From IMG/VR virus record IMGVR_UViG_3300042865_000182, positions 43,395 through 107,394 of that record: a stretch of 64,000 nucleotides of DNA. One strand, 5' to 3'. The notes below the pieces were generated by a model that was not told where the DNA came from, did no database searches, and saw nothing but the letters and a program-made list of their open reading frames with translations. This document shows, in pieces, positions 14,773 through 61,575 of this stretch. Origin of the DNA: a virus. The position numbers and the translations under genes were made by a program. How positions within the stretch are numbered: position 1 is the stretch's first letter; each line of letters opens with the position of its first letter.

Positions 14773-17700
14773 ATGCCAGAAAATATTCCTTTAAGTAATA
14801 GATTATTATCCTCAGCAGGTATTAATCCATATGAGCAACAACAAAGTAATAAAGTTGAACCACCTCCATTTTTACAAAATGATATTAGTAAACAACTAAA
14901 TGGAAATGTACAAAAACCATTAACAGATGAAGAATATGTAGCAGAACGTGGTATGAAATGGTTGGGTAGAAGTTTGGGCAGACAAGATAGAAATGCTCAA
15001 ATGACTCCTTATACATATAATGCAGGTGCAGGTAGTAATTCTTTTTATAAAACGTATCGTGCATTTGGTCAAAAAACATTTGATGAAGTTGGATTCAGTC
15101 CCTTTAAAAATAATGATGAAGCTTTTAATGCACAAACTAGTTTTTTAGATAGATTTTCAAGAACTATAGTACATGGTTTTGCACCATTATTTGCAAGAGG
15201 TTTTGTATCTGGTCCTAAGAGTATGGCAAGAATGCTACAAGGAGATTTTGGAGATGATCCTGAAGATGCAAGAAAATATGCTGAAGCAGCTGCAATAGCA
15301 CAAGATACTTCAGGAGGTGTTGGTGCTTTCTTTAATAATAGCCTAATGAATTTTGGTTATAGTGCAGCTATTATTACTGAAGCTATTGCAGAAGAACTTG
15401 CATTAAGTGCAATGGGTGGTATTGGTGGTGCAGCAAACTTGCCTAGATTTTTTGCTAAATTAGGTAAAGCTGCTAGTGGTGTTAAAGGATTTTCTACAGT
15501 AGTTGATACAGCTGCTGGTTTAGGTAAGTCTATTAAATCACTTACAAATGTAAATAAAGCTAGAGAGTTTTTTAATGCTGCTAAAATTGAAGCGGGTCTT
15601 GAAACAAGATTAGGAAAGTTTGCTAACTTTTTTAATCCAGCAGAAAACTTACTAGAAACAGGACTTGATATTGCAAAAAATACAAAACAACTAAAAGGTT
15701 GGCAAAGATTTAATAATGCAACATTTAAAACTGCAGGAGCATTATATAGAGATGTCCGTAATATAAATATGGCATTATCTGAGGCAAGGCTTGAAGGTGG
15801 CTTTGCAAGAAATGATACATTTGATCAATTGTTTAATGATTATAGAAGTAAACATAATGGTCAACTTCCATCTGAAGAGATGAGAAATGCAATGATGAAA
15901 GAAGCCAATGAAGCTTCTAAACATTCACTTCTTGCAAATACACTACTTATTTATGCTAGTAATAAAATTACATTTGGCAATGTAGTTAATCCTAAATCAG
16001 GATTGTCTAGAGTGATATCTAAAAGAGTTGCTGAAGTTCAAAAAATGGCTGGTAGAACTACAATAAGAGAATTTACCAAAAGAACATTAGCTAGTGGTAA
16101 AGAATTACTTACTCCAAAATTATCAACTGTAAAAGGTATTTGGGCTACAGCAAAAAAACAAGGTGTACAAAAAGCTGTTAAAGGTGTTATTGGTTACACT
16201 AAAGCTAACTTAATGGAAGGTGCACAAGAAGTGCTTCAAGAAGTTATTGCAGATACTGCTAAAAATTATCATTTACAAGCTTTCTATTCTCAACCTGTTG
16301 GTGAATATATGTATACTAAAGCTCAGCTTGATGCAATGAAAGAAAAAGGATTCTCAGGTATTTTAGGAGAAGCTTTTGAAAAACAACGGAGTTGGCAAGG
16401 ACTTGAAACATTTGCATCAGGTTTTGTAATGGGTGCATTTGCATCACCATTAAACAGAGCCTTACCGTTTGCTCAAGAAAAATATATGCAAATCTTTAAA
16501 AATGAACAGTATAAAGCAAATAAAGATATTATAGATAACTATGTAAATAGAATGACTAAATCTGTTAATGATACATTTGCTAAAAATCCTATTGAGTTTT
16601 ATAATTCTAGAATTTTTGGTTTAGGTACTCAAACTGAATTAGCAAATGTAATTGATGGAGGTGATGCAAAGAGTTCTAGAGATGGTAAAGATGAAGCCAC
16701 TATAAAAAGTATTACAGACTTAATTAAGATGGATAGTCTTAATATCTGGACAGATTACATGGAATCTTTAAAAGAATTAACTACTGAAGAGTATGCTGAA
16801 GCTGTTGGTATTTCTGTTGAAGAAGCACAAGGTCATACTGAAAAGTTAGATAAAGTAATTAATAGAGCTAAGGAGATAGAAAAAACATATAACCAATATA
16901 ACAAAAAGTTTCCTAATCCTATTGATCTAAATGACTATGAAAAAGGAACTAAGGAATATGAAAAAGCTGAAATCTATCATACAGCTTGGGAAGAAGGTAA
17001 AAAGAATGTAATTTTCTATCATGAGAATTATAAAGATACTTTAACAAGAATGCAAAGTATTTTTCAATCTATTGCAGAAGAAAAGTTACTTGGTAAGATA
17101 GACCCTAATAGAGTGCAAGCTTTATTTAAAGATGATAAATTAGCTGGTGAAATACAGATACTTGAGAGTGAGGTTGAAGGATTAAGAGGAATGACAGATC
17201 CTGTATCTAAAAGAAAATTTAAGGAAACAGAAAGAACACTGGGTGTTTTAAAAGAGTATCAACAAGATTATGAAAACTTTATGGATCATTTCTTTGAATC
17301 AGGTATGGTTGAAGAAGTAGATACAGAAGGTAAAGTTGTGAGAACTGAATTAGATAATCAAGTAATAAATAAATTAGAAAGCTCATTTAAGAGTTATATG
17401 AAAGCACTTGCTAAGCAAAGTGATGATATAATATTAGATGATAGTATAGATGATGCTTTTGAAAAACTTATTGACTATTATAAATTAGGAAGAGAAGCAA
17501 ATAAACTTTCTGATACAGTAAATATGTTAAATAATCCAGAAGGATTCATGGATCATATTGAGAAAACATATGATTGGATGTATGAGATGTGGAATAACAG
17601 AGAAGAATACATCCGAGACAACATAAATAAGCAGCTTGAAACACTTAAATTTAACCAGTTGTTAAATGACATGGCTGCAGTTGGTGTTTATGTTGACTTA

Positions 17701-20700: not shown

Positions 20701-22191
20701 GATTCTGCTGGATACCAAGGTTATCCTAATGAGATGAGTGATGCTCAGTCTAATATGTTATTACAACTTTCTGCAGGATTACCGGATGTTACTCCAGCTG
20801 CAGTTAAAAAAGCTGAGCAAACTCCAGATACACTTTTACAAAATGTAGAAGGAGCAGTAACAGAAAGAACCTACAATGAAGAGACAGATGCGGGAACATA
20901 TATAGATGATTTATCTAAAGATTTCCTTGAAGGTAAAAAACCTAAGTTTGAACCAGAAAAAATAAGTGAAGAAGCTTATGAAAATCTGTTTGGTGAAAAT
21001 GGTTTATTTCAAATCATGAAACAGTGGATGGATACTAATAAGTTAATCATAGTTTCTAGAGGTCTTGTTGTTTATGATAAAGATGCAAATGTTGCCGGGG
21101 AGATTGACTACTTACTATCTGATGGTAAGAACTTCTATATAGTAGATTTAAAAACCGGTAAAAAAGATAAGTGGGATAAGTATAATGATCCAAAGAGTGA
21201 GTACTATGGTAGTAAGATATCCAACACATTGCAACAAGCTTCTTATGTAAACTTGTTATATAATATGATTGGTATCAAAGCTATTCCAAAAATATTACCG
21301 GTAGAATTAGAACTTAACAGAAGTAATGGTAAGATATTAAAAGCATCAAGACCAAGTTCTCCTAATGCTCTTAAAGTTGGTAAGATACTTATTGATTTAC
21401 CTATTTCTCCAGAAATACAAGCAAAAATAGATGAGTTGATTCCATTAAGATCCACTCCATCAATAAGCTCAGTGCCTCTTTCTCTAAGTGTATCTAACAT
21501 TGTAAATAAAGCTGAGGGAGAACAAGTAGAGCCTACTGATTATGAAGAAGGTAGTGATGTACCAACAGGAACTCCAACTGATGCTTCTGCAAAAGTTAAA
21601 GAGTATGAGGATAAAATAAACAAGGCTGAAGATACAGATAAGTTAGACTTTATTGAACTTCAACTTGGTATGAACTCAGTAGACATGACAGCTGATGATA
21701 TTTTCCAAGTGCAGCAAATGATAGAACAGAGAAGGAATATACTTCTTTCAGGGGGGAAAGTTGTAACGCAAGAAAAATCTTGGAGTACTGGAAACCAAGT
21801 TTATAGTGAAAGTACTATATTTGTAGACAAAGGTAAGAATAGAGGTGAAGTATTTTTGGAGCCGTTTGAAACAGCAATTATTAGTAGTATTGATCCAGTT
21901 AAAGGTACAGTCACAATAAAACCTTATGGTAAGAAAAATCAAAAGACAATTTCCATTGATATGTTAAATAAAATGTTTAAATTAAATAGTGACTTGTTTA
22001 CTGGAGAAGAAGCACCTGCAGCTGAACCAGCTGGTAAAGATCTTCAAAATTTATCTAAAGAGTCTACTGATGTTGTATCAACATTACTTAATGATACTAC
22101 AGAACAGGCTAGATTAGAAAGTGAAGTTTCAGATGAGAGTATTACAGTAGATAAGACAGTTGATGATTTGTTAGATGATTTAGAATGTTAA
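14773..22191 (+). CDS. Giant virion ejection protein 1 with PD-(D/E)XK nuclease domain and inserted domain cassettes
   Basis: 2472 aa. Gly/Ala hydrophobic segments in the N-terminal part. Nuclease motifs AGEIDYLL (~21094), YIVDLKTG (~21145) and QxxxY. First of the three giant genes typical of crAss-like phages. Confidence 0.7.
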   Translation: MPENIPLSNRLLSSAGINPYEQQQSNKVEPPPFLQNDISKQLNGNVQKPLTDEEYVAERGMKWLGRSLGRQDRNAQMTPYTYNAGAGSNSFYKTYRAFGQKTFDEVGFSPFKNNDEAFNAQTSFLDRFSRTIVHGFAPLFARGFVSGPKSMARMLQGDFGDDPEDARKYAEAAAIAQDTSGGVGAFFNNSLMNFGYSAAIITEAIAEELALSAMGGIGGAANLPRFFAKLGKAASGVKGFSTVVDTAAGLGKSIKSLTNVNKAREFFNAAKIEAGLETRLGKFANFFNPAENLLETGLDIAKNTKQLKGWQRFNNATFKTAGALYRDVRNINMALSEARLEGGFARNDTFDQLFNDYRSKHNGQLPSEEMRNAMMKEANEASKHSLLANTLLIYASNKITFGNVVNPKSGLSRVISKRVAEVQKMAGRTTIREFTKRTLASGKELLTPKLSTVKGIWATAKKQGVQKAVKGVIGYTKANLMEGAQEVLQEVIADTAKNYHLQAFYSQPVGEYMYTKAQLDAMKEKGFSGILGEAFEKQRSWQGLETFASGFVMGAFASPLNRALPFAQEKYMQIFKNEQYKANKDIIDNYVNRMTKSVNDTFAKNPIEFYNSRIFGLGTQTELANVIDGGDAKSSRDGKDEATIKSITDLIKMDSLNIWTDYMESLKELTTEEYAEAVGISVEEAQGHTEKLDKVINRAKEIEKTYNQYNKKFPNPIDLNDYEKGTKEYEKAEIYHTAWEEGKKNVIFYHENYKDTLTRMQSIFQSIAEEKLLGKIDPNRVQALFKDDKLAGEIQILESEVEGLRGMTDPVSKRKFKETERTLGVLKEYQQDYENFMDHFFESGMVEEVDTEGKVVRTELDNQVINKLESSFKSYMKALAKQSDDIILDDSIDDAFEKLIDYYKLGREANKLSDTVNMLNNPEGFMDHIEKTYDWMYEMWNNREEYIRDNINKQLETLKFNQLLNDMAAVGVYVDLNAFAEFKNTGVIPTEFFDNVNKRVIKKGSPLYEQVANRFQGLAVMQQILEANKPTSEKQKEELARLDAEEAAAIARLPKVSTKLVVRNIDNKEDFSLRVVNDQLSEGQSVDVTYEEDSEQKSAVFYKDANGVLRYDNEQGEPVDLKLSVKFNSGQIFEIQNRPTDEDVAEVKKQYDALRAEAAEKFIDEGIKPFTAEDIAELDAINADTPVEAMPADLKQQLVDAYDDYRERPENKNMFPASLTEEDLQNKFEIFIKSEPEALEIIEKYVKDKKLEAATTPAGEVIVPKITLPNGEVISADEATDAILDATLQRYRMLIAELSSKGDEMTDDERKNLAIYKSKANILSGYIENKRIGEMSPELKAAKAKIDLLLKEQDKIKKLKTGYDVEGEILRRVSNVIEVLKDKKYEYPRMQDIRVIFNMTIGAGGTVSDFMTQLKNAKLPGFSEDTYDALEEDIKEFMTLTSITDQDVLKLQLEGLKEDLKVEEGEFGNPERALEIRNQIAILEKQVKQEAPTTNQADIEAKRAEGTNVRGTTYKGETTEKDGLKVTEYSEFRPDGKRISKGGRIMLPAEFIEEYNITDQDYLDSLEGAAEIRVYQVRVGKDGKSSISIQGTFPEGNVEMEVGGKESIASTTTPVADIEKRTTKIISSETVEKGNKKGETRTVTQTNSVEDLQGTTVSVTEYEAKVGDTTVTLGGRKMTFKEFKEEFPLDEDYEEILGDWPDLNDDTIITVRKVKRTPSSSRFKTVVTIVSPVLGDKMDVIIKQDDAKYDAELDALEGPANQAEINAKKAELNKLKETKENLSHPYDKLTTAAEKANWIEKNTRVVRSAFKTDEEYINYYETNRNKFINAIAQGKSKVDAMLAIDSINVEYYSNPKNEKALNEDYANVLRSYAVPLALTSEQKAYTSTGKIVSLLDGVNIKIDELTKEIAELEKATTAPAVEASVSYEDLVAKSRSEVGVIGPNLSFIFFGNLQNAIKNGQVRSKEELNKIIADWNDSAGYQGYPNEMSDAQSNMLLQLSAGLPDVTPAAVKKAEQTPDTLLQNVEGAVTERTYNEETDAGTYIDDLSKDFLEGKKPKFEPEKISEEAYENLFGENGLFQIMKQWMDTNKLIIVSRGLVVYDKDANVAGEIDYLLSDGKNFYIVDLKTGKKDKWDKYNDPKSEYYGSKISNTLQQASYVNLLYNMIGIKAIPKILPVELELNRSNGKILKASRPSSPNALKVGKILIDLPISPEIQAKIDELIPLRSTPSISSVPLSLSVSNIVNKAEGEQVEPTDYEEGSDVPTGTPTDASAKVKEYEDKINKAEDTDKLDFIELQLGMNSVDMTADDIFQVQQMIEQRRNILLSGGKVVTQEKSWSTGNQVYSESTIFVDKGKNRGEVFLEPFETAIISSIDPVKGTVTIKPYGKKNQKTISIDMLNKMFKLNSDLFTGEEAPAAEPAGKDLQNLSKESTDVVSTLLNDTTEQARLESEVSDESITVDKTVDDLLDDLEC

Positions 22192-22195
22192 TACT

Positions 22196-25100
22196 ATGAA
22201 AATTACTTGTGCCTTAAGCCAGAGTCAATCTGAAAAATTATATAAAACCATATACAAATCTTTAACTGAAGCACTAAAAGCTGAAAAACCATTCAGTGCT
22301 CAAGAGTATATGGCTAATCTTTTTGACAAGATTGCAGATAAAAAAGATGAAGATACCGCAGTTAAATTCTTGCAACAAGTCCCATCTATCATAAGAACAA
22401 TAGCTGCCAAACCAGCTTTTGATAGCTTAGATATAAAGCTAGATCCTATCAAAGAGTTGAGTCTTAAGTTTAAAGATGAGACTGAAGGTTTTAATGAAGT
22501 ACAAAAGTATTTCAAACCACAAGTATCACAAAGAGCTAAGTTAGCTTTAATAAGAGCTAACCAGAATAATGCATTGCTTGCAGAACAAGTAGACCCACCA
22601 ACTGAAGTAAAAGATCCGGTGAGACTTAGACCTTTTAGTTCTAATGTGTCTACTATGCAGTTATTAATACCAATTAATCCTAAGGATAAAGACAAGCTTC
22701 TTAAAGAAGAAAATGACCCGGCTAAAAAAAGAATATTTTCTGCAATAGAGACAATCAAGAAAGAAGCTGTATTAAGTGACTCAACTGATGTATTATCACC
22801 TATATCTTTTCAAGGTAAGACATTAAAGTTAAAACCAATTCTATTAACAGAGTTAAGAGAAACACATGAGAATCAAATAGATAAAACTACTTTGTCTGAA
22901 GTTATAAGAGCTGGTGCTATTAAATCACAAGGAACAAATAAAGAAGGTGTTGAAGGATTAAACAGAATAGCACTTGTTATTACAGATGAAAGTGGTAACT
23001 ATCTATACTTCAATGAAGAAGGTGAAATGGTTACTGAAGAAGAAGGTGGTGGTATTGTATATCAATTTATGCGGGATGTAAGAACTGATAATGGTGTATA
23101 CAGATTAACCAATATGTATGGTTCTGAAACTAGTGTTAAGACCCCTGCAGATATTGCAGAACAAATGGGTATCACAGAAGAAGCAGCTAGAAAATTACAA
23201 CAAGAAGAGTTCAAAGACTTATATAAAGTTAAAGAAGCTACATTAAAAGGTAACGGCCCGTTGTTATATTTAACTGGTTTGACTCCAGGAGTAAAACAAA
23301 GTGCTACTCAAAAAAATATTACACTACAGAATTTAAGAAGTCTTCCTTTTGTAACTAATGCAACTTTTAAAACCATAACTCCAAAAATGATTTATGGCAC
23401 TAAAGAAATTGCAACAATTACATTAAATGGACAAGAGTATAATTTAGATAGACCTAACTTACCTATTGAGTTTGCTAATGGTGAAAGACAACCGAGCCAA
23501 TTAATTAGAAAAATTGCAGCAGCATTAGCAAATCCAAACATATCAAATCAAGAAAAATATGAGTATGTGTCACAATTTTTATCTGATAAAGCATCAGAAT
23601 ATACAAGAAGACACACACTAAGTTATGATGAAGCTACTGATACTTTAGTTTTTGGGTATAATGAGAAAACATATAAAGAGGGTAGTGGACAGAAATTATC
23701 TTTTATAAATGAAGAACTAACAGGTAAAGAAAGCATAATAGAAGATGTTCTACTTAATGCTGCTTCAGATGATAGAGGTAACATGTATAGTGCTAAAATG
23801 ACTTATAATGCAAAAGCACTAAATGATAACCGCTACCGGGATTATGACATGGAGACTAATACTATTAGTGATGAGTTTACTCCTTACATACCATTCTTAG
23901 AAACATTACCAAATTCAAAGGTAAAAATTAGTGAAGAGAATGCTCCAGAGTTTTATAACTCACATATAAACTTCAGCATACCAGATGAGTTTACAAAAGA
24001 AATAGAAGCAGATTTTAAAAATCCAGATCCTATTAATGTTTCAGAAACTCCAGTAGAACCTTTTGAAGACATACAAGCTAAAATAGCTGAAATAGAAACA
24101 TTAGAAAAAGAAAAACAAGAACTTTTAAAAACTCAAAAAACTTATAAAGATTTACTCAATCAAAAATGGCCAATATCAAAATACTTAAAAAAACCAGTAG
24201 ATGGTAAATTTGATGTAGTTTCTGCTACTACTACTTCAGATTTTAATTTTAAGTTTAAAGAATATGGAAAAGATTACTTTTTTGAGATTGCTTCTGCTGG
24301 CTTAAATGCTTTTGAATATAAAGTCATAAGTGATAAAATCTCACAAACTACAGCTTTAAGTAATATTGATGAGATTATAAAACCAGTAACTACTGAATTA
24401 AATAGTCCAAAAGATGGTGATAATATAGTAACCATTAAACCAGGTGTTTTAAAAAAAGAAGGTAATGAATATATTGTTGTAACACCTGCTGAAGTTTTAT
24501 ATGTAAAATCTGAAGAATTAAATGAGCCTGTTGAAAAGGTTGATACAACAGAAATAGATTCTAGAATTGCTAAAGCTAAACAAGAACTAGCTGCTTTAGA
24601 ACAACCTGTTGGTGATAAACAAGCTCAGATAGATGAGATAGAAAAAAGGAGAGAAAAAGCATTATTTACTCCTTGGGTATTACAAAAAAATACAACAGAT
24701 GTTGTTATATTAAATAAAAGAGAAAGAGGTAAACAGATTATTGATGCGGCAGTTAAGTCTGGTAATTCTAATCTTATTTTAAAATTAATTGACTTAACAT
24801 CAGAAGGTAGAAGTGCAGAAACAATCTCAAAGGAAACTGGTTTTAATGAAGATCAGGTAAGGGAAATAAGAGAATATTTAGGAGCTTTAACACCAGGAGG
24901 TTTTGGTATAAGTGGTGCAGAAACTGAAAATGAACAAGAAGATCTTGAAAGATTTAATGCTTGGAAACAAAGTATAAAAGAGATCAATGCTAAAGCTAAA
25001 GAAGAACTAGATGCTTTAGAGCAAGCTCCTGTAGAACAAAAATGGGAATGGCCTCCAATTACACAGGATGATTCAATAAACAATGCAACAGCACCAGATA

Positions 25101-28100: not shown

Positions 28101-31100
28101 AAATGGGTAATTTATTTTATGGAGATTTGGTTCAGTATAATCATGAGAAAGAAGAACTTCATAAAAGAAATACAGGGTCAACTTCTGGCGGTTTAAAATT
28201 CAGAACAGATGCTGCTATAAAAGCACTACTTACTGATATAAATAGTAAGGTGTCATATGCTGCTACATTACCTGGTATGGAAACACTTACATACACTGGT
28301 AAATTTAATACTGCAATTCTTCAGGATATAGAAAGAAACTCTGTATATGTTAAGCAAATAGAAGAAGCTTTAAGAAAAGACTATGAAGAAAGATTTGCTA
28401 ACAGCAAAATGCCTAAAGATAAAATACAAGCAGAAATTGATAGAAGAGTTCAAAAAGAAGTTGCCAAGTATAAGGGAATGGAGGAAGGAGATGGACAAGG
28501 TTGGATTACTTTTGATGCATATAGGTCACTTAAAATGGCATCAGGTCAATGGAGTGATGTACAAGAAGAGCTTTTCAAAAAAGTAATAAATAATGAGCCT
28601 GTAAAAGCATCAGATATTGTAGAGATGTTTCCTGCATATAAGCTTCAAAACTATGGTCACTTAGCAGATACAGCTTTACCAGTAATGGCTATGCATAAAT
28701 TTGCATTAGCTCCTATGATACCAACAATGATAAAAGGATCTGACTTGGAAAATCTTCACATGCAAATGATGAAGAATAATATACAGTATGTTACATTCCA
28801 AACAGGTTCTAAAGTAGGTAGTGTTACTTCAGAAGTTAATAGTAAAGGTAAAGCAGTTGCTGATAAAATTTATGCAGATGAAGGACAAAAGTCTTTATTA
28901 AGCAGTATTAAGTTTACTCCTAATACTATATATCTTGAGTATCTTAAAGATGTAACTCAAGTTCCGACATCTTTCAAAGGTAAAACAGTATTTGCAACTC
29001 AGTTAAGAAAGCTTATTCTAAGCAACCTATATGACCGTGGAATTCTAGATAAACATTCAGGTCTAGTAAAAGACTATGAAAATACAGTAGATGAATATGG
29101 TAATCTACTAAAAATGGAGTTACTCAATGATATAGGCTATGAATATAAAGATGGCAAATACATTGGTAACTTTACTGAATTTTTAAAAGTTATACAAGCT
29201 GAATTAAATAGAAGGGATCTACCTGAACATCATGTTGAGTTTGTTAATGCAAATCCAGATAACTCATTAAAGACAGATTTATCCTTACATCTTAAATCAG
29301 ATGATATAGAAAAGATTCTTGTAGCTTTAATGGAGAAAAGACTTGTTAGACAAAAGATTAAAGGTGAAGCTTTAGTTCAAGTATCTAGTGCTATGACCAA
29401 TGGGTTATGGGACAATCAAGTTAAGTTTGATAAAGCAAATGAAGATGAGGTAAGAAAATTCATGGGTAGTAATAACTTACCTTTTTACAATCCTACAGCA
29501 GATGGTACATCAGCAATGAAAGTTGCTATTGCTTTACAAGGTGATTTTGTAAACTTATTAAATGCAAAACATAATGATGGTGAACCAATAGGTACAAGAG
29601 AGAGACTTAATGAGATGATTAAGGATGATAAATGGATGGCAGAAAATGGTAAATCTGTTAGTTTATCAGCTGTAAGGATTCCAGTACAAGGTCTTAACTC
29701 TATGGAGTACATGCAAGTGTGGGAGTTCCTAGATCCAGCAGCAGGTAATATTATCATACCTCCATCTGAGATTGTAGCTAAATCTGGAGCTGACTTTGAC
29801 GTTGATAAACTTACTACATTTATGCCAGCTATTTCTAAAGATGGTAAGTTTATAGAATCTGAGCTTGATAATGAAGCTATCAAAAGATTGATATCAGATA
29901 ATAAAGAAACTCCTGAAGGGAAAGCTATGATATCAAGAGTTATAAGTCAACAAAAAGCAGCTCTTGAGAATAAGCTAATCACAAGCATAAATAATATTCT
30001 TAGACTTCCAGAAAACTATGCGGCATTAGTAAGACCAAATGATACTTACTTACTTAAGGATGATGTAGCTGATGTACTTGAAGATAAAGTTACAGACTAC
30101 AACAGATTTAATAATTATCATGGTGAGCCTCAAAGACCGGGAGCAAAAGCAAAAAGATCTATAAGTCCAACAAGAACTTTAGAACCATTGTATAATTTAC
30201 ATAAGCATGATGCAAACATGATTGGTAAAGCTGTTCTTGGTCTTGTTGCTATTTATAATGCATTACATCCAATATATAATTCACTTGATGCTAAAATGCC
30301 AAAACAGTATTTAGATACTTATTATGATAAAGGTTTAGGTAAATATGTAGAAGGAAAGAATCCAATATCCTCAAGAATGTTTATGCCTCATAATAAAACT
30401 GCAGAAGGTAACATATCTTTATCTGATATTTATACTGCAGATGGTGTAGACTTAATTTCAGATTTATACTCTCAGTTGATTAATGGTGCTGTGGATGTTG
30501 AAAAAGATGCATGGATCTTCTTTATTCAAGGTAACATGGAGTTAGCTCCTATGCTTTTGACAATGTTTAAGGCCGGAGTTCCAAGAGAATATGCAATCAA
30601 GTTCTTATCACAACCAATGATTAGAGAATATGCTAAAGAGTTAAGACTACTTGGTGGCTCATATGCAGATCTTGTTGCAGATCCACTTGAGGATACTAAA
30701 ACAGGTAAAAATAAAAGAGCTGCAATCAGTGTATTAGAAAGATTTGGTGTTATAAATGCACCATCTTATCTAAAATCAGATCTTAAAACTCATATGGCAT
30801 TATCTGCACTTACAAAAAAATCTGGTGTTTTAAATGAAGAGGGTCAATTTGATGTGGCTTTATTAGATAAAATGTTAGAAGAAGATGTGAGTACTGATAC
30901 ATATAAAAATCAACAGCTTGCTGTATTTTTACATTTTCTTGAAATGCAGAATCAGTTCTCTGGCTTCCAAGATTTATTAAGACTTTCAAATCCAGACACT
31001 ACAACTTCTAAGACTACACAAGAGATATTACTAAGAAAGACTTTGCTTAATGATATAATGAAGAACTCTAAAGTAGATCCTTCACTAGTTTCAAAACTTA

Positions 31101-32443: not shown

Positions 32444-35400
32444 GTAAGTGTTTAAATGTACGTGACAGAAATGTTGCTAGGCTTATTAAAGATTTTGGTG
32501 AAACTACAGTGTCTCAATTAGTTGAGTCATATTTTGGTGATGAAGTCCCAACTTATGATGAGTTTATAGCAAACAAAGATGTTAAAGAACAGCTTAATAT
32601 AATTCCTATATCTAAAGTAAAAAATGAAATTGGAACTAGTTTCTCAAAACAATTAAGCACTGACAGAATAATACAACTAAAACAAGCTATCTCAAAGGCT
32701 AACAATAAAAATTACAAAGCGGGTAATCCTGAAGTGTATATGCTTGTTAATTACCAAAGAGTTGGTGAAGCAGATTTATATACATGGGGTCTTAGAAAAG
32801 TTGCGGGAACTCTTGATGTGGAAGCTAAGATAGAAAGAGCTAAAGCAATGGTAAGAGAAAGCATTACTCCTGTTAGTGATCTAGAGAAAATGATAGAAAA
32901 TGATCAGCATTTTCTACCGGAAGAAGACTTTGAAATAGGTGATGAGCAATTAGAGAATGAGAGACAAGCATTAGAGATATTAAAACAAGATGCTGAAAGA
33001 GCTGGGCTTGACTATGATGACAGATATCTTTATGAAGAAAGAGATGAGATGGTTACACCTCAACCTGTTTCCGGAATCTTTGACAGACTAAAAGACAAGT
33101 TACAACAACTTTACCCTGCTATTACACTTGATATAAGTAACAACCCAGTATGGGAAAAAGGAACACAGATATTAAACCAGCAAGAGTATAATAATGAAGT
33201 TGCTTTTAGAATTAAAACTGTAGACTTACTTACCTCAAGAAAAGCTGATGAAGTATTTGCAAAAGGTCTTAAGAATAAATGGCCTTTGGATAAAATGCTT
33301 ACTGAGCTTCAGGTACCTAAACAACAGAAACAACTTATAGATAGTGTACTAAAAGACATGCCTTACTTTGAAGGTATACCTTTTAATGCTCAAATAGCTT
33401 ATGCTATTGCTGATACTTATACTTATACTCTTGAGATTAATACTGCTACAGAAGATAAAAGACAATGGGGAGATTATTTTGATAATGATCAACCTTTTGA
33501 TAATGAAAGGTTTATTTTAAATGATTCAAGATACTCAGTTAATTATGATGAAAATACTTTTTATGGTTATTTAAAAGATGGTTTAGAAATTACTAAAGAA
33601 GAATTTGATAATGCTCAAAAAGAAGCATTTGTAAAATATAAAGCTAATGAAAACACAATTAGACCAACTTCATATTATGATAACCTAACAGTTCCTGGTG
33701 GTACTAACTATACAGAGAATGAAATAGCAACACCTGGTATAACCCCAAACATTAAAGGACATGCTCAGTTTGCTACAAAAAATGGTATAGGTTGGTTTAG
33801 AAGTGATAATAAAGTAGATGGAACTTCTTTAGGACTAACATCTGCTCAATTAGCTAATATGCCAGAAGAAGACATTGCTAAGTTTACTGATAATACTAAA
33901 ACCCGCAGAATACTAGAAGTACAATCTGATTTATTCCAGAAAGGTAGAGATAGAGAAGATTTAACTAATCAAGAATTTCCAGATGATAATGACTATGAAT
34001 ATGCTTATGCAGAAAGTTTTGAGGAAGCAGAAGAACTTGAAGCAGAAGGTTGGGAAAAATTTGGGTCTACAGAAGATGGTGGTATACAATATATAAGACT
34101 TAAATCAGATGCTGTTTTAAAAAATAAAAAAGAAAGACAAACCTCATCAAATCAATTTCTACAACTCTTAAACAAAGACAACAACTGGGTAAACTTCTTT
34201 GTTAAATCTATCATACAAGATAGTGCTAAGAAAGGTTATGAGAAAGTATTGTTTCCTAAAGGTGATACAGCTAGTAAAGTTGAAGGGCATGAAACTTTAG
34301 AAAATTATAAGAGAGAAAAGCTAAAAAGGATTGAATTTTTAGAAGATAATAAAGAAATATTAAGTAATACTAAACCTTACAAGATAGGAGATTATTTTGA
34401 TAGAGATGTTGAAAATTTACCAGAAAATGAAAGAGTTAACTATAATAAAGTAGAAACTCAAGAAGAAGTAGATTTACTAAATGAAGAACTATCTACAGAA
34501 GGTATAGATAATGAAATTAATCAACTTAAAAAAGAACTTGCAGATATTGAAGGTCCTCAAGGATTTGGTGCTTTAAGACCTATCTATAACTTTTATGAAA
34601 ATACTGTATCTAATGTTCTTAAAAAACAAGGTTATACTCCGGAAGTAATTACTGATGAGTATGGTAATCAGTGGAATCAAGTTACTGTAAATCAAGTAAG
34701 AGACTTACAAAATATATTACTCCAAAGAAATGAGGCTGACAGAATTATAGGACAAGCTAATATAAAAGCTATGTCTGTACTTCTTGATGCAGTAAATCAA
34801 AAAGAAGATACACTTCCTCATGAATATGCTCATCACTATATTGCATGGTTTAGAAATACTCCATTAGTGCAAGAAGCTATAAGCAAATGGGGTAGTGAGG
34901 AAGCTTTAGTACAATCTATTGGAGAACAAGCTGTTGCTCAAAAAGGTGAAGCTTGGGGCTGGTGGAAAAAGTTTACAGAATGGGTAATGAGTTTATTTGA
35001 TAACTTATCTACCAAAGATAAACAAGAACTAACTAATATACTTACTGATGCATTCTTACAGGGTGTAGATTTACAGACCGGTAAAATTGGTATATCTGCA
35101 GAAAGAAGCCGTGAGCTAGCTGCACAAGCATCTGGTATTTTTAATCAGACCATAGAAGGTTCATTTGATGAACAGATACAAAATATACCAGGAGAATATA
35201 GCCAGCAAGCTATAGATACTGAGTTAGATAGAAGAATTGAGTCTCAGAGACAAATGGATACAGAAGAAGCTTCTGTTGATGATACCTTGAACCAACTTGA
35301 TCCAGATAATCAAAAAACAATTTTAACAGCTACAGCATTTGCTGAAAAATTAGCTGATGCAATTGGAGCAGATTATAAATTTGTATCTGAAGCAGAGGCT

Positions 35401-38400
35401 GAAGCTATTCTTGCTAATTCACCAACACCATATGGCGGTCAATCTGGATTTTATCATGCTAATACAGTTTACTTAGTAAAAGGTAGATTGTCTTTGGATA
35501 CTGTACTTCATGAGTTTGCACATCCATTAGTTAAAGGCATACTAAAAGATAACCCTAAGTTATTTAATAACTTATATGCCGCACTTGCAAGTACACCAGA
35601 AGGTCAAGACATAATTGAAAGAGTAAGACAAGAGTATCCAAATCTTGAAGAGGGTAGTGATAGATTTAAAGAAGAAGCTATAGTAACTTCATTAGAGATA
35701 AAAGCTGCTTCTAAAGTAAATGACAATTCTCCATTTGGTAAATTCATTAAAAACTTAATGTTTGCTATTAAAAAAGTACTGAGAAACATGTTCAGTACTA
35801 AGAATGGTAATGCTATAAACTTAAATAAGTTAAGTGAGAAAACTACACTTAACCAGTTAGCTGAGATGTTAGCTAATCCAGAGTTTAAGGTTATGAATAT
35901 GGAGCTTATACCTTCAGACATTGCAGAATTTAAAAATGAAATTACTGCAAAAATTGAAGAGCTTAAGAATGTCCCTAAAGATAAACTACAGGAAACAATA
36001 GATAGAATATATACAGATACATTAAACCAGCTTAATACACTTAAGCAAGCTCCATTTAAAGTAAAGCAAGAGTTACTTAGTGCAAAAGGTACTAAGATAT
36101 TAGCTTACATCAGAGAGGAGTTGGAAAAATATCAAACTGTAAATGTAAGACCTCAGGATGTAGATCCTGAAAATGTAATCAATGCTATTGCTGACTATGA
36201 GACAGAAATGAGATTAAGATCATTAGCTCTCATCAATTCACTCAATGAACTTAAAGTATTTACAGATAGTATTAAAAACATACTTGATGATCTTAAGAAT
36301 TCTAAAGACAAGAATACCAATGCTAATATATCTAAAGTAGTATATTACAAAGGATTCTTAAAGAGTCAATTGAGAATGCTTGAGGATTTAAAAGATATAC
36401 CTGATCTAGATAGAGATGGGGAATTTTTTAGAAAGATAAATTCTATTGGTGACAGTATCCGGGATGCTGAGAAAAAAATCTATGATATAGAATTTAATTT
36501 TATCAGTGAGTTTTTTAATAATGAAACAGACTTAATGGCTAGTGCTGTTGAAAATACTTTTAGAGATAGAGTTACTTTACTATTAAAGGCTGAAGGGATT
36601 GAGGAGTCAGAGATTGAAAAGTTTATTGAAAAAGTAGTTAATAATCCTGATGGTACAGAAATGACTGTTAAAGACATTGAGTTACCAATATCTTCTAGAA
36701 GAGCTAAATATATTGTAGATGCTGCTAAAGAGTATTATTTTAAAAGACTTGGTAGACAACAGATTGAAGAATATCTGAGAGGAGAAAGAGGAGATTTAGG
36801 ATTTTTCACTGCTTGGATAACACCATATTCAAACATGGATGATCCTATCACAGGTGGATTTGTAAAGTTCATTAAAGAAAAAATGAATGATGCAATGATG
36901 AGAAGTCAGAACCAAGCTAATGATATAACTTTAAAACTATTACCATTACTTAATGCTGTTGGATATAATCCAGCTAGAACTAATCAATTAGGAGACATGT
37001 TGTTGTTTACTGATAAAGTAGGTTTTACAAATAATAATGGTGTTTATGAAGAGAAAGATGTGCTTACTTTTATAAACAAGTTCAAAAATTATAGGGCTGA
37101 TAGGGCAAGATTACAGAATGATTTTGATTTAGCTAAGTCTAAAAAAGATCAAGTTAAAATGAAAGAAGCTTATGATGCACTTGAAGCTTTTGATGAGAAA
37201 TACATGCATAGAAAGTTCACTAAGGAATACTATGATATACAAAAGATTTGGAAAACAGGAGCTGTTGTAAAAAATCCATTTACCGGGGAAGAAGTAACTG
37301 TAGGTGCAAAAGTGGCATTTGATTCTTTCTTAGAAAGACAGGAGTTATTAAATAAAATGAATACTCTTAAGAATGTTCACTTCTTAGAACTTGAAGACTT
37401 GTATGAGCTTGGGGATTCAGAAGAACAAACAAAGCTTGAGTACAATAGATTGTTTGATATTTATAATCTAGATGGTAAACCAAAAACTGGTGAAGAGCTT
37501 GAAAGAGTTTTGCTTAGAAAAAAACACAGAGAGTTATCAAGAAACATGTATGACTACTCTCCGGATACAGACAGGTTGCAAAAAGACTTAGATAACTTTC
37601 ATCAAAAACTTTTAGCTAGAAATATCAACCCTGAAGATGCTCCAGCTGAAGGAGAAACAATGAATAAGTATCAGAAAGAGATGGATAGATTCTTTAGAAA
37701 GAATTTAAAAACAGCATATACTTCTGATTACTATAAATCTAGACAACAAATCTTTGAGGATATAAGAAAGATAACTGAGAAAGCTGGAGTAAAATCTAAA
37801 GTAGCATTAGAGTTATCTGAATTATATAAAGAGAGATATAGACTTGCAAATTCTACTGCAGATGCTAATGGGCAGCCAAATGGGCTAAACTTTACAGCAA
37901 ATCAAATTGATTTACTTAGAGATATAGAAAATAAGATAGTTGCATTAGAGGAAAGCTATAACAAAAAAACAGGTCTGACAAAAGAGGAGACAGCAAGACT
38001 GCAATCTTATATGAATAAGGTTGCTATAAAGGTTGCATTAACACCAGAAGAGAACCAAGACTTCATGACTCTGTATAAAACCAAAAATGAAATGGGTCTT
38101 ACAGAGCTTGAGATGCAAACACTAAATAGTAAATTTGCTGAGTTAGCTGCATTGAGTGTTAAAGAACCTACTGACTATTATATTGAAGCATTTAATTATG
38201 CATTAAGAAATACTGGTCTTCCTGAGATTACAGTAGAAAATGCAGATACTTGGATTAATTCTGATTACTTAACCCAGGCATTAGCAAAAGATAAAGACTT
38301 TGCTCAATGGTACACAAGAAATCATGTTGAAAAACAGATTTATGTGAAAGGTGAAGGTATGGCTAATAAAAACTTTAGACTGAATGTTTGGACAATAACC

Positions 38401-40764
38401 AAACCATCTAATGAAAACTCATATCAAACAACCACATTGATGAATCCAGTAACAGGAGAGTATCAAAAGTATATGGGTGTTCCTGCTGGAAAATATGGTA
38501 AGAGTGTGATTAAAAATGAGTTCTTAACAATACCAAGAGGGGCTAACTGGGATCAGTATGTAGGTAAATATATTGATAACAGAGGAAACTTTTTACCACG
38601 GGAATATAAACCTGGAGATAGAAATACAGCATATGATAACAAGTATATAAATGAAAAGTATATTGAGTTAGAACGATCAAACAGTGCTGAGTTTCAACTA
38701 CTTAAGACTATATCTGAAGAGTTTATTAAACTGCAAGAAGGTAAAGCTGTAAACAGTAGACTTTATCTTGATTTACCTAGATTTAGAAAAAGAAGTAATC
38801 TTGAGTTTGTACAGTCAGGTGAAACTAAAGAAAACATAATTGAAAAAATTGGTGGGTTTAAAGGTTTATGGAAAACATGGTTTGGTAAAGCTCCAGATGA
38901 TGTTGAGTATGGATTTAACTTTGATGCTGGTAGCACTCTTGTATCAACAGATTTAGAAGGGAATCCTATAACTAAAATACCAGTAAGAGGTACATATAAC
39001 TTAGATTCTAAAATGGTATCTAAAGATGTATTAAGAAGTATGTATGAGTATTTACTTTCTCTAAATGAGCAACAAATACTTATGGAAAATGAACCTGTGG
39101 CAGATGCATTACTGAGTGTACTTACAAATAATCCAATTAAAGATCTTGAAAAATTAAATAAAGGTGAATTTAAACTTACAGGTAAAAGAAAGTATACTCC
39201 AAAAGATGAGAATAGAAGACAGCAAGCCGTTAAGTATCTAATTGATAAAGTATTTTATGGGAAAAGTACTTCTTCTTTTGAAGAAGAAAATCCTAGAACA
39301 GCAAAAATCTTCCAAGGAATGTTTAGAAGATCATCAAGAGCATTCATTGCTTTTGATCCACAGTCTGCTATTAAAAACCGTTGGGGACAACTATATCAAA
39401 ATTCTATTCTTGCTGCAGGAGGTAGATTTGTTACACCAGTTTCATTAGCAAAAGGTAAATTAAAAGCAAAACAATCTGCTACTTATTGGGTGTTTAAAGA
39501 TGTATATGAAAAAGGTATTAAAACACCTGATATTCAGTTAGTTGAAAGATTTGACCCTGCTCTAAGAACGCATGAGGAATTTGGTAAATCATCATCAAGA
39601 TCTGTATTTAAGGATCTTTCAGATATGACATATGCATTTGACTTTAGAAGGACTATGGAACTTGAAGCTTCTATGGAGTTATTCTGGGGTGTGATGTATA
39701 ATAAATATGTAGATCAAAATGGTGAGTCTATTCCATATGCAGAAGCTTGGACATCAGATGAGGATGGAAAGTTGATACTTAAAGAAGGTATTGATCCTAA
39801 TTATTCATTTGATGAAGTATTTCATTCATTTAAGTTAGGTGAAACTTTAGAAAGTATAGCTAAAAAATATAATATATCTGTTGAAGCTCTTAAATATAGA
39901 TCTGGTATTGAATCTGTCTCAAATTTAATACCAGGAGAAGAAATAAGAGTGGGTGATGCTTCAGAGTTTAAAAGAATGAAGTTAATGCTACAAGGTGTAA
40001 ATAAAAAAGTAACTGGTTCACTAGATAAATTTGATACACCACAAGCAGAAAAGTATCTATTATATAGAGCATTCACATTCTATAAAAGATTTGCTACAGG
40101 AATGTTCCTTGATAAATATCAAATGGATACAACAGCTGGAAATAAAGGAGGTTATGTCTATAACTGGGATACGCAAACACTTGAAAAAGGATATTATATT
40201 CAAGCATTTCAAGCTATTTATAAGTTAATAAAAAGTATTGGTAGAGATTGGGCTATTCTTACTCCTCAAGAAAAAGTTGCAATGACAAGAGTGCTGGCAG
40301 AGGGTGTGTTATTATTCTTACTTGGAATGATAGTAGGTTCTTGGTGGTTTGATTGGGATCCAGAAGATTCAGATAGGTATAAACAAATGAAAAGAGATAA
40401 TGCAACTTGGTCAGGTTATTTTGGCAATCATTTAATGTACTTATTAATTACTACAAAATCTGAAAATGAGGCATTTTTACCTTTAATAGGTATTAAAGAT
40501 CAAATGTCATACTTTGGAACTACAACTATTGCAACCGCAAATACAATAGATATGTATATTAAAATTATGTTTGATTTGTGGAACATAGCTACAGATAATC
40601 CTGATGCTATATATTCTAAACAAGATCAAGGCCCATATTTCTGGCAGAAAAAAGGAAGGTATAAACTATGGAATCATATTGGTAGCATGTATGGTATTAA
40701 AGGTAAAAATAAAGATGCTATGTGGGCAGTTAAGAAATTTGAACAATATGAAGCAACTAAATAA
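32440..40764 (+). CDS. Giant virion ejection protein 3: two zincin HExxH domains, EVQSD domain, LysM, C-terminal TM segment
   Basis: 2774 aa. HEYAH (34819), HEFAH (35509), RILEVQSDLFQ (33916), LysM-like FHSFKLGETLESIAKKYNISVEAL...LIPGEEIRV (39820..39951), hydrophobic VLAEGVLLFLLGMIVGSWWF. Confidence 0.7.
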   Translation: MSKCLNVRDRNVARLIKDFGETTVSQLVESYFGDEVPTYDEFIANKDVKEQLNIIPISKVKNEIGTSFSKQLSTDRIIQLKQAISKANNKNYKAGNPEVYMLVNYQRVGEADLYTWGLRKVAGTLDVEAKIERAKAMVRESITPVSDLEKMIENDQHFLPEEDFEIGDEQLENERQALEILKQDAERAGLDYDDRYLYEERDEMVTPQPVSGIFDRLKDKLQQLYPAITLDISNNPVWEKGTQILNQQEYNNEVAFRIKTVDLLTSRKADEVFAKGLKNKWPLDKMLTELQVPKQQKQLIDSVLKDMPYFEGIPFNAQIAYAIADTYTYTLEINTATEDKRQWGDYFDNDQPFDNERFILNDSRYSVNYDENTFYGYLKDGLEITKEEFDNAQKEAFVKYKANENTIRPTSYYDNLTVPGGTNYTENEIATPGITPNIKGHAQFATKNGIGWFRSDNKVDGTSLGLTSAQLANMPEEDIAKFTDNTKTRRILEVQSDLFQKGRDREDLTNQEFPDDNDYEYAYAESFEEAEELEAEGWEKFGSTEDGGIQYIRLKSDAVLKNKKERQTSSNQFLQLLNKDNNWVNFFVKSIIQDSAKKGYEKVLFPKGDTASKVEGHETLENYKREKLKRIEFLEDNKEILSNTKPYKIGDYFDRDVENLPENERVNYNKVETQEEVDLLNEELSTEGIDNEINQLKKELADIEGPQGFGALRPIYNFYENTVSNVLKKQGYTPEVITDEYGNQWNQVTVNQVRDLQNILLQRNEADRIIGQANIKAMSVLLDAVNQKEDTLPHEYAHHYIAWFRNTPLVQEAISKWGSEEALVQSIGEQAVAQKGEAWGWWKKFTEWVMSLFDNLSTKDKQELTNILTDAFLQGVDLQTGKIGISAERSRELAAQASGIFNQTIEGSFDEQIQNIPGEYSQQAIDTELDRRIESQRQMDTEEASVDDTLNQLDPDNQKTILTATAFAEKLADAIGADYKFVSEAEAEAILANSPTPYGGQSGFYHANTVYLVKGRLSLDTVLHEFAHPLVKGILKDNPKLFNNLYAALASTPEGQDIIERVRQEYPNLEEGSDRFKEEAIVTSLEIKAASKVNDNSPFGKFIKNLMFAIKKVLRNMFSTKNGNAINLNKLSEKTTLNQLAEMLANPEFKVMNMELIPSDIAEFKNEITAKIEELKNVPKDKLQETIDRIYTDTLNQLNTLKQAPFKVKQELLSAKGTKILAYIREELEKYQTVNVRPQDVDPENVINAIADYETEMRLRSLALINSLNELKVFTDSIKNILDDLKNSKDKNTNANISKVVYYKGFLKSQLRMLEDLKDIPDLDRDGEFFRKINSIGDSIRDAEKKIYDIEFNFISEFFNNETDLMASAVENTFRDRVTLLLKAEGIEESEIEKFIEKVVNNPDGTEMTVKDIELPISSRRAKYIVDAAKEYYFKRLGRQQIEEYLRGERGDLGFFTAWITPYSNMDDPITGGFVKFIKEKMNDAMMRSQNQANDITLKLLPLLNAVGYNPARTNQLGDMLLFTDKVGFTNNNGVYEEKDVLTFINKFKNYRADRARLQNDFDLAKSKKDQVKMKEAYDALEAFDEKYMHRKFTKEYYDIQKIWKTGAVVKNPFTGEEVTVGAKVAFDSFLERQELLNKMNTLKNVHFLELEDLYELGDSEEQTKLEYNRLFDIYNLDGKPKTGEELERVLLRKKHRELSRNMYDYSPDTDRLQKDLDNFHQKLLARNINPEDAPAEGETMNKYQKEMDRFFRKNLKTAYTSDYYKSRQQIFEDIRKITEKAGVKSKVALELSELYKERYRLANSTADANGQPNGLNFTANQIDLLRDIENKIVALEESYNKKTGLTKEETARLQSYMNKVAIKVALTPEENQDFMTLYKTKNEMGLTELEMQTLNSKFAELAALSVKEPTDYYIEAFNYALRNTGLPEITVENADTWINSDYLTQALAKDKDFAQWYTRNHVEKQIYVKGEGMANKNFRLNVWTITKPSNENSYQTTTLMNPVTGEYQKYMGVPAGKYGKSVIKNEFLTIPRGANWDQYVGKYIDNRGNFLPREYKPGDRNTAYDNKYINEKYIELERSNSAEFQLLKTISEEFIKLQEGKAVNSRLYLDLPRFRKRSNLEFVQSGETKENIIEKIGGFKGLWKTWFGKAPDDVEYGFNFDAGSTLVSTDLEGNPITKIPVRGTYNLDSKMVSKDVLRSMYEYLLSLNEQQILMENEPVADALLSVLTNNPIKDLEKLNKGEFKLTGKRKYTPKDENRRQQAVKYLIDKVFYGKSTSSFEEENPRTAKIFQGMFRRSSRAFIAFDPQSAIKNRWGQLYQNSILAAGGRFVTPVSLAKGKLKAKQSATYWVFKDVYEKGIKTPDIQLVERFDPALRTHEEFGKSSSRSVFKDLSDMTYAFDFRRTMELEASMELFWGVMYNKYVDQNGESIPYAEAWTSDEDGKLILKEGIDPNYSFDEVFHSFKLGETLESIAKKYNISVEALKYRSGIESVSNLIPGEEIRVGDASEFKRMKLMLQGVNKKVTGSLDKFDTPQAEKYLLYRAFTFYKRFATGMFLDKYQMDTTAGNKGGYVYNWDTQTLEKGYYIQAFQAIYKLIKSIGRDWAILTPQEKVAMTRVLAEGVLLFLLGMIVGSWWFDWDPEDSDRYKQMKRDNATWSGYFGNHLMYLLITTKSENEAFLPLIGIKDQMSYFGTTTIATANTIDMYIKIMFDLWNIATDNPDAIYSKQDQGPYFWQKKGRYKLWNHIGSMYGIKGKNKDAMWAVKKFEQYEATK

Positions 40765-54576: not shown

Positions 54577-55392
54577 CATTATCTTCAAATTAATTTGCAA
54601 AATTAACCCCGTTTATTAAACTGCTTAACATTTCTGCTAAGATGAGACTATATCTTCTTCCTTGTTAGGAAGGCTTCCTTTTCCACTACCATTAGCTTGC
54701 AGTGTACTCCCCTTTGGGATAGTCGTTGAACCTTTTATAAATAAGTTTTCATATACTTGCTTTATCCAAAGGACCCATTCATCATATGAATAGTTCTTTT
54801 TAGCAAAATTACATTTTTGACAGCAAGGAACACAATTATTTAGCATATAACCAATATTATTGTCCTTTCTATCTATACCATTATATACAAACTCAGATGT
54901 ATCTTTAAATTTTCTTTTATGTCCTTTAAATGTATTTGCTGGAACAGCATTACAATAATGACAGTTTTGAACTACAAGTTCTTTAAATTCATCTAAATTA
55001 ATATCAAAAGTATAATTTCTAAGTAAAGCTTGCTTTTGGTAATTCATGTAAACTTGATAAAACATTGCTGTAAAAAGAGGTTTAGAACTTCTTTCAACTA
55101 TTTGTTCAATATTATAACAACCACAAGATTTACTTGCCCCAGATTTAACTGAATAACCAGTAACTTTTTTAATATTTCCACAATCACATTGGCAAATATA
55201 TCTTTTTGTAGATTTTTCCCAATGAAGCACTGTCCATCTATTAATTTTTGTTCCTGGTTCTAAACTTAATTTACTCATATTTACTTATTTATAACTTGGC
55301 TGCTGATTGTCTTCACCTTTCAGTGGTCAGAGTTCCCAGCAATTAAAAAGCTTTTTCAATCTATATTACTATAGAAAGTGGCTACTAATTTA
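54577..55392 (-). mobile_element. Group I self-splicing intron (IA2-like) carrying an HNH homing endonuclease
   Basis: 5' exon ends in U, intron ends in G. P AATTGCTGGGAA (55344-55333), Q AATCAGCAGC (55308-55299), R GTTCAACGACTA (54731-54720), S AAGATATAGTCT (54656-54645). P1 UGGU/UA pairs with UAGCCA. Confidence 0.92.
54637..55278 (-). CDS. Intron-encoded HNH homing endonuclease
   Basis: CQCDCG...SKSCGC N-domain; CHYC...GIDRKDN...NCVPCCQKCN. The C-terminus reads through the R and S elements. Confidence 0.85.
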   Translation of the reverse strand: MSKLSLEPGTKINRWTVLHWEKSTKRYICQCDCGNIKKVTGYSVKSGASKSCGCYNIEQIVERSSKPLFTAMFYQVYMNYQKQALLRNYTFDINLDEFKELVVQNCHYCNAVPANTFKGHKRKFKDTSEFVYNGIDRKDNNIGYMLNNCVPCCQKCNFAKKNYSYDEWVLWIKQVYENLFIKGSTTIPKGSTLQANGSGKGSLPNKEEDIVSS

Positions 55393-61574: not shown

Positions 61575-61575
61575 T

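Follow-up and report, generated by a model that had tools for sequence, protein, structure and literature searches.

How does a phage load, order and deliver a megadalton protein cargo that includes the polymerase with which infection starts? This question, raised by structural work (PMC10172136, PMC13434306), concerns the Crassvirales, the order to which the most abundant human gut phages belong, and it is posed again by a 64,000-nucleotide stretch of the IMG/VR virus record IMGVR_UViG_3300042865_000182 (positions 43,395 to 107,394 of that record; the whole stretch is called the window below, and coordinates count from its first letter). In the window, three consecutive genes encode giant proteins, here named p1, p2 and p3, of which p2 is a putative virion RNA polymerase (RNAP), and the only cysteines (Cys) of this series lie where the C-terminus of one protein faces the N-terminus of the next. 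A sequence-only reading had proposed that these residues link the three proteins head to tail. We examined this proposal by residue counts, comparison of homologues and related loci, and structure prediction, and find that the cysteines are paired across junctions and probably form disulfides that join the proteins into one chain.

Cysteines at the facing ends of the cargo proteins

The genes and residues concerned are the following; negative residue numbers count from the C-terminus, −1 being the last residue.

11141 to 14764, + strand: pU, 1207 aa, Cys-free, directly upstream of p1 and outside the Cys-tipped series
14773 to 22191, + strand: p1, 2472 aa, first series member, its sole Cys being the last residue
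22186 to 22188, + strand: Cys2472 codon of p1, TGT; column invariant in the p1 alignment (A2)
22196 to 32443, + strand: p2, 3415 aa, virion-type two-barrel RNA polymerase by similarity, Cys only at residues 5 and 3412
22208 to 22210, + strand: Cys5 codon of p2, TGT; column invariant in the p2 alignment (A1) and in the alignment of N-terminal p2 domains (A3)
29792 to 29806, + strand: DFDVD catalytic motif of the RNAP, p2 residues 2533–2537
32429 to 32431, + strand: Cys3412 codon of p2 (−4, fourth from the end), TGT; column invariant in A1
32440 to 40764, + strand: p3, 2774 aa, last series member, its sole Cys being residue 4
32449 to 32451, + strand: Cys4 codon of p3, TGT, from translation and count

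Translation and counting bore out every cysteine position that had been read by eye, including the lack of any Cys in pU: p1, p2 and p3 together comprise 8661 aa with four Cys, all at facing termini and each encoded by TGT. The 21 other open reading frames (ORFs) of the window set the background at 82 Cys in 8658 aa (0.95%), a rate at which four or fewer in the 9868 aa of pU, p1, p2 and p3 would occur with a probability of 6e-35; if placement were uniform, all four would lie no more than five residues from an inner terminus with a probability of 3e-11. TGT and TGC trinucleotides occur 657 times in any frame of the cargo-gene DNA and four times in frame. The giant cargo proteins are strongly Cys-suppressed (4 in 9868 aa), as in the ejection operon of N4-like phages (Schitoviridae; N4 gp50-52, DEV gp71-73), which is near Cys-free and for which passage through the oxidising periplasm is given as the rationale (PMC11445570). 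The same source supports what the earlier reading had stated on a Cys-free N4-type virion RNAP and its periplasmic passage.

The identity of the three proteins follows from remote similarities. The catalytic region of p2, with its DFDVD motif, matched the virion RNAP of phage phi14:2 (6VR4_A) at E = 6.9e-14 (phmmer, 800-aa piece), whereas a full-length A1 profile retrieved no PDB sequence at E ≤ 0.01. By tblastn, p2 found 76 Crassvirales records at about 22% identity, crAss001 and phi14:2 among them; its first 1000 aa found no match in the phage collection, the catalytic region alone finding relatives, and blastn of both junction regions found no match there either. Weak similarity connects p1 with crAss001 gp47 (E = 3e-7) and p3 with crAss001 gp49 (E = 4e-4). 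Residues 2029–2139 of p1 are exonuclease-like (phrog_298), and p3 carries a LysM domain (2465–2504), a hydrophobic helix (2618–2637) and two HExxH motifs (residues 794 and 1024), which agree with the zincin-like domain reported for gp65; beyond the p1 exonuclease-like stretch and the p3 LysM domain, PHROGs and Pfam searches with pU, p1, p2 and p3 returned little. The gene order pU-p1-p2-p3 is common to related loci (n = 80), a pU homologue precedes p1 in nearly all of them, and the pU homologues in the loci examined are also Cys-free. Because of the p2 motif and 6VR4 match, the similarities of p1 to gp47 and of p3 to gp49, and the features of p3, the p1-p2-p3 set next to pU is, as judged by homology, the RNA-polymerase cargo block of a crAss-like phage. 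Homologues of this block were detected by mass spectrometry in phi14:2 and crAss001 virions (crAss001: PMC10172136), and p1, p2 and p3 would presumably be packaged and ejected as well.

The placement of the cysteines is conserved among the roughly 120 homologues that database searches yielded for each of p1, p2 and p3. Nearly all p2 homologues (45–99% identity, 2500–4300 aa) have exactly two Cys, one at residue 3–6 and one at −1 to −4, and the latter is kept regardless of C-terminal contexts that fall into quite different motif classes. Homologues of p3 have a single Cys at residue 3–6, even at identities as low as about 24%, and those of p1 a single Cys at −1 to −6, with identities reaching down to 28%; the p1 C-terminus ends in the conserved motif D-L-L-D-D-L-E-C. 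Homologues that break the pattern are mostly apparent truncated gene calls or have one extra internal Cys. The columns of C5 and C3412 are invariant in A1, as is that of C2472 in A2, where 47 columns do not vary; in A3, which holds 42 N-terminal p2 domains down to 16% identity, C5 shares its invariance with a single other column. In phi14:2, the proteins g067, g066 and g065, annotated as virion proteins from tandem mass spectrometry (MS/MS), have Cys at −1, at 3 and −2, and at 3, respectively; in crAss001 the positions are −3 in gp47, 5, one internal and −9 in gp50, and 5 in gp49. By sequence comparison the pattern spans at least the Steigviridae, Suoliviridae, Intestiviridae and this environmental lineage.

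Pairing at junctions, splits and fusions

If the cysteines serve to connect neighbours, they should occur on both sides of a junction or on neither. Scanning viral contigs with A1 and taking 10-kb flanks gave the 80 loci mentioned above, of which 74 are distinct (a single p3 fragment as query gave only three); adjacent same-strand ORF pairs were classed by the presence of Cys in the last 10 residues of the upstream and the first 10 of the downstream protein. Among the junctions of the 74 distinct loci, 133 proved to be Cys-bearing on both sides and 65 to lack Cys at both. A one-sided Cys occurred once (locus L035) and is an artefact of an upstream-ATG start call. Fisher's test gives p = 3e-52 for this pairing, a value that overstates independence because the loci are related, so that changes of architecture are the informative cases. 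In the related loci, no Cys occurs at the outer ends of the series. Motif classes also co-vary across the junction: a C-terminus of the type ...ILKxIC is always followed by ...CPIKT, whether the module is fused to p2 or free.

The window genes abut, with a 4-nt gap between p1 and p2 and an ATGA overlap between p2 and p3, and all four of their Cys codons are TGT, so one might read the codons as by-products of nucleotide signals such as translational coupling or start and stop context, with no role in the protein. Across the loci, TGC is used as well (26 codons, against 240 TGT), intergenic distances range from −11 to +36 nt, the Cys position varies (−1 to −10 on the C-side, 3 to 6 on the N-side), and the equally tight pU/p1 junctions have Cys in 0 of 65 cases. 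In crAss001 and cr85_1, moreover, the p1 homologue lies on the opposite strand and does not adjoin the RNAP gene, yet the Cys pattern is kept, which refutes the nucleotide explanation and leaves it a practically negligible probability. The inverted p1 gene, the use of both codons, the variable spacing and the Cys-less pU/p1 junction together argue that the pattern is no artefact of gene junctions.

Split genes add cysteines in pairs. Six loci have one extra protein between p2 and p3 (L015, 242 aa; L016, 252 aa; L018, 261 aa; L023, 655 aa; L053, 307 aa; L082, 574 aa) and L060 has two (762 and 300 aa). In all of these extra members, Cys is confined to residue 3 and to one position between −1 and −3. 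In six of the eight (not the 762-aa protein of L060 or the 574-aa protein of L082), the last 115–160 aa are homologous to the end of an undivided p2 in L013, L057 and L068, and these undivided proteins have no Cys at the internal point that corresponds to the split. The C-terminal 47 aa of the 762-aa protein match the very C-terminus of the undivided p2 of L053. Division of the gene is thus accompanied by a new Cys pair.

Fused genes lose them in pairs. Fusions of p1 and p2 occur in cr1_1, cr4_1, cr118_1, cr10_1 (Suoliviridae) and cr108_1 and in the metagenomic proteins P0228, P0237 and P0238; neither their N-terminus nor the fusion point carries Cys, and they keep the C-terminal Cys together with the N-terminal Cys of the next protein, so that in P0228 (4449 aa) and P0237 (4725 aa) the single Cys is the last residue. 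Conversely, the p2+p3 fusions of cr271_1 and cr11_1 (Intestiviridae) keep Cys3, matched by a Cys at −2 of p1, and have a C-terminus without Cys. These cases bear on the topology of the link. Taken alone, Cys counts of one, two and one would equally fit a scheme in which the termini bond to the portal, the capsid interior or a scaffold, or in which middle members cyclise while p1 pairs with p3. Such schemes are very improbable, however, in view of the fact that the p1+p2 fusion loses exactly the C-terminal Cys of p1 and the N-terminal Cys of p2, that the p2+p3 fusion does the reverse, that the outer ends of the series are Cys-less, that the facing motif classes co-vary, and that the p1 tail is predicted to lie on the p2 N-terminus (see below). 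Because each fusion type loses exactly two facing cysteines, pairing of neighbour with neighbour is favoured over cyclisation or other partners. Taken together, the comparisons show the facing terminal cysteines to be, at the level of homologous sequences, a conserved and paired protein-level feature of the crAss-like cargo series that is interchangeable with a peptide bond.

Some breaks in these genes gain no pair, as judged from L058 (2791–9998), where an ORF of its own (1613 aa) encodes the N-terminal part of p1 (matching p1 residues 3–1036) and the next ORF (789 aa) ends in Cys, the junction between the two having Cys on neither side. In L076 (3476–9996), p1 is merely short (1306 aa, matching p1 residues 79–975). 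These two cases may be sequencing frameshifts, or may involve a part that is not tethered. Two of the uncultured phages with p1+p2 fusions show further peculiarities of gene structure. In cr4_1 (L090, genes 2826–29874), the structural and cargo genes have 7–38 in-frame stops each under table 11, from which we conclude that a stop codon is reassigned; the terminal-Cys rule holds there despite the reassignment. In cr108_1 (L086), about 290 nt (21824–22115) interrupt the RNAP gene exactly within the catalytic motif, one ORF ending in ...AKAGSD and the following one starting with LYDIDK, which suggests an intron-like insert at the active site.

The domain content of the series members is variable. 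An HExxH motif of p2, HEAWH at residues 1056–1060 (window 25361–25375), is invariant in 22 p2 homologues and stands beside the RNAP motifs; it may form a zincin-like site within the polymerase protein. The N-terminal third of p2 (window 22196–25500) varies among relatives, in which this part contains PF13532 (2OG-Fe(II) oxygenase), PF08719 (DUF1768/NADAR), PF18760 (ART-PolyVal), PF13671 or PF25176, and in the relatives with these varied domains Cys is still confined to the termini. A module of about 680 aa that contains the first HExxH of p3 (window 33082–35139, p3 residues ~215–900) is mobile among series members: it is found inside the p2 of L021, the three metagenomic p1+p2 fusions, the p1-type protein P0216 and the middle-type protein P0227, and many p3-type proteins have it close to their N-terminus. 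Wherever a host protein was examined, its terminal Cys tracked its own position in the series and not the mobile module.

Predicted docking and the nature of the link

Whether the facing ends could meet was addressed by structure prediction of two segments at the p1/p2 junction.

22042 to 22188, + strand: C-terminal tail of p1, residues 2424–2472, predicted to dock on the p2 N-terminal domain
22196 to 22576, + strand: flexible tip of p2 (residues 1–8, with Cys5) and helical domain (9–127), predicted receptor of the p1 tail

In a model of the N-terminal 330 aa of p2, the helical domain (9–127) mostly has a predicted local distance difference test (pLDDT) value above 90, while residues 1–8 are flexible. 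This segment (residues 1–330) was co-folded with the last 140 aa of p1 (residues 2333–2472, single sequence) and with three controls. The interaction prediction score from aligned errors (ipSAE) was 0.68 (runs 0.66, 0.75 and 0.68) versus 0.00 for the best of the three controls, the partner had a pLDDT of 68 or more, and the runs agreed in at least 56% of contacts. As benchmarks, 58 of 80 solved complexes score this high, as do 2 of 110 mismatched pairs; these counts are only approximate here because a custom alignment was used. Recall of a known structure is unlikely, as profile searches against PDB sequences found no solved complex of these families. The confident interface comprises p2 residues 1, 3–18, 20–25 and others with p1 residues 2424–2472 and includes both Cys5 and Cys2472, so that, according to the prediction, the p1 tail binds the N-terminal domain of p2 with both cysteines at the contact surface.

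A precedent for such an arrangement exists in the virion of cyanopodophage A4, where cryo-electron microscopy showed gp27 to insert its C-terminal helix into a gp26 cleft, in which a Cys1715–Cys5 disulfide fixes it (PMC12002296, PNAS 2025). In the Anabaena phage A-4L record, gp27 (1717 aa) has a single Cys at −3 and gp26 (1114 aa) a single Cys at residue 5. As in the crAss-like series, adjacent giant ejection proteins, otherwise Cys-free, have a lone Cys on the C-terminal side facing a lone Cys near residue 5, and the C-terminal helix of the upstream protein lies on the downstream one, a geometry that for p1 and p2 is predicted only. The A4 case differs in that a single link joins two proteins of a T7-like pre-ejectosome devoid of RNA polymerase, whereas the crAss-like series would have two links, up to four in relatives (L060), and its pattern is order-wide and tracks splits and fusions. 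By analogy, A4 shows that proteins built in this way occur and that, in an actual particle, their cysteines are disulfide-bonded.

The A4 authors read the disulfide as stabilising a mortise-and-tenon pentameric pre-ejectosome, treating it as a local stabiliser and stating no general rule, chain or redox release (PMC12002296). Transferred to the present proteins, their interpretation would make the same terminal disulfides staples of a compact in-capsid pre-ejectosome, with no thread, ejection order or redox switch. The sequence data are silent on ejection order, which suits this alternative as well; a staple, however, could sit anywhere on an interface, while here the cysteines lie 1–10 residues from the chain ends in every lineage, and the replacement of the link by a peptide bond in fused genes fits a linear chain. 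We therefore regard the staple as unlikely. An improbable alternative dispenses with the bond altogether: the extensive helical interface of the co-fold could hold without a covalent link, assembly takes place in a reducing cytoplasm, and the thiols might share a metal ion or just pack together. One Cys per side supplies only two metal ligands, and neither a conserved His nor a further Cys lies near the termini; for a residue that just packs, a Cys that stays invariant while all its neighbours vary would be unusual; and in the solved A4 case the link is a disulfide (PMC12002296). Of the earlier proposal of a head-to-tail link through a disulfide or a shared metal site, the pairing of p1 with p2 and of p2 with p3 is thus strongly supported by conservation, by the tabulated splits and fusions across crAss-like genomes, by predicted docking and by the A4 precedent, and the metal site is disfavoured.

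We assign a probability of roughly two in three to the reading that the pairs form interchain disulfides in the particle after tail-on-head docking and thereby produce a linear pseudo-polyprotein. Under this reading, selection would have stripped the cargo of all Cys except for one at every terminus that faces a neighbour in the series. A member's C-terminal tail would dock on the N-terminal region of the following one, where the lone thiols would meet and form a disulfide, giving an N-to-C collinear chain p1-S-S-p2-S-S-p3 of about 8.7 thousand residues, the covalent counterpart of the natural crAss-like gene fusions and of the single-chain N4 polymerase. Partly unfolded, this chain could pass the narrow tail channel, its joints being thin enough because the links lie 1–10 residues from a chain end; no wrong disulfide would arise in the particle or the periplasm because no other Cys is present. 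The reducing cytoplasm would then open the links, so that the three proteins come apart. What we infer from these patterns is the disulfide as such, its part in retaining and ordering the cargo, the loading stoichiometry and the reductive release in the cytoplasm. A fuller scheme of a redox-gated ejection thread, which would ensure 1:1:1 loading, exit order and survival in the periplasm, would be cut by host thioredoxin-type reduction that also activates a self-inhibited RNAP, and would make fusion and split interchangeable states across the Crassvirales, is a tentative possibility that we consider rather doubtful.

Several points weigh against the disulfide chain. Gut Suoliviridae have 5–7 internal Cys per about 4500 aa, and the cr271_1 fusion has 15. 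The Cys5–Cys2472 pair is absent from the lowest-error contacts listed for the co-fold, the output of which contains no S–S distance, and the co-fold support covers the p1-C/p2-N junction only. The A4 precedent is to be read as an analogy, as no similarity of sequence or fold was found: blastp of A4 gp26 and gp27 against p1, p2 and p3 gave E > 0.01, the A3 profile retrieved nothing relevant to A4 gp26 from the PDB sequences, and the N-terminal model of p2 gave generic helical matches only in Foldseek against pdb (best E = 0.31) and generic helical bundles in VIA-align wide (Z ≤ 6.4). Neither the crAss001 atlas (PMC10172136) nor the phi14:2 paper mentions terminal Cys or a covalent link. Particle assembly in a reducing cytoplasm and the anoxic gut habitat mean that oxidation within the capsid is not guaranteed, and the disulfides observed in crAss001 preparations may have arisen after the particles were purified under aerobic conditions.

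Comparison with characterised systems helps to place the proposed chain. The phi14:2 series g067-g066-g065 (g066 being gp66, PDB 6VR4) and crAss001 gp47/gp50/gp49 have an identical terminal-Cys pattern, although they share only about 22% identity with the window proteins, which are much longer and contain extra modules. In crAss001, structural disulfides occur in the tail and portal vertex, and gp47, gp49 and gp50 lie in the capsid as cargo whose exit requires partial unfolding, their ejection order probably being set by packing and mutual interactions (PMC10172136); for phi14:2, it was noted that the three proteins are fused in some phages. The N4 virion RNAP is a single beads-on-a-string chain that must also unfold to exit, and a 2026 N4 paper asks how the three crAss-like proteins relate to its N-terminal domain, core and C-terminal domain (PMC13434306). 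Both systems have an almost Cys-free giant virion RNAP with co-ejected partners. N4, however, lacks terminal Cys, unites three functional parts in one polypeptide and has a T7-like polymerase, whereas p2 is of the two-barrel, 6VR4-related type, three genes share the functions, and the proteins have terminal Cys, which are invariant. The crAss-like solution would thus join separate gene products after translation, in contrast to the single chain of N4. A functional parallel is offered by AB-type toxins, e.g., diphtheria toxin A-B, in which a single disulfide tethers the cargo chain to the translocating chain during unfolded passage of the membrane and is reduced in the cytosol, releasing the cargo. 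These toxins differ from the crAss-like series in being unrelated proteins with chains cut from a precursor, no head-to-tail geometry and no virion.

Cys-free ejection proteins and one terminal disulfide, that of A4, were already known. New, and not found in the literature searched, are a proposed multi-link chain around a virion RNA polymerase, its conservation over several families and its strict co-variation with splits and fusions; a full-text search of a limited collection yielded no paper that describes terminal Cys in crAss-like cargo proteins. If true, the disulfide chain would explain the free fusion and splitting of cargo genes in evolution, tie the three crAss-like proteins to the single-chain N4 polymerase and generalise the single A4 disulfide. 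The terminal Cys also provide an annotation rule by which the members that open and close the cargo series can be recognised in metagenomic crAss-like genomes.

Further features of the window

Pfam searches with ten other ORFs of the window gave no match to a thiol oxidase, thioredoxin or Dsb-like protein. Two Met-rich proteins are encoded upstream of pU, at 4963–8430 (43 Met in 1155 aa) and 8436–11075 (52 in 879, 5.9%). Neither has a Pfam match, and the former has a CxxC motif at residues 226/229. Downstream of the cargo genes, the minus strand contains two small Cys-rich ORFs, likewise with no Pfam match: one of 213 aa at 54637–55278 with 11 Cys, including CxCxC and CxxC spacings, and one of 152 aa at 61140–61598 with nine. 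Both contrast sharply with the Cys-poor cargo genes of the same window.

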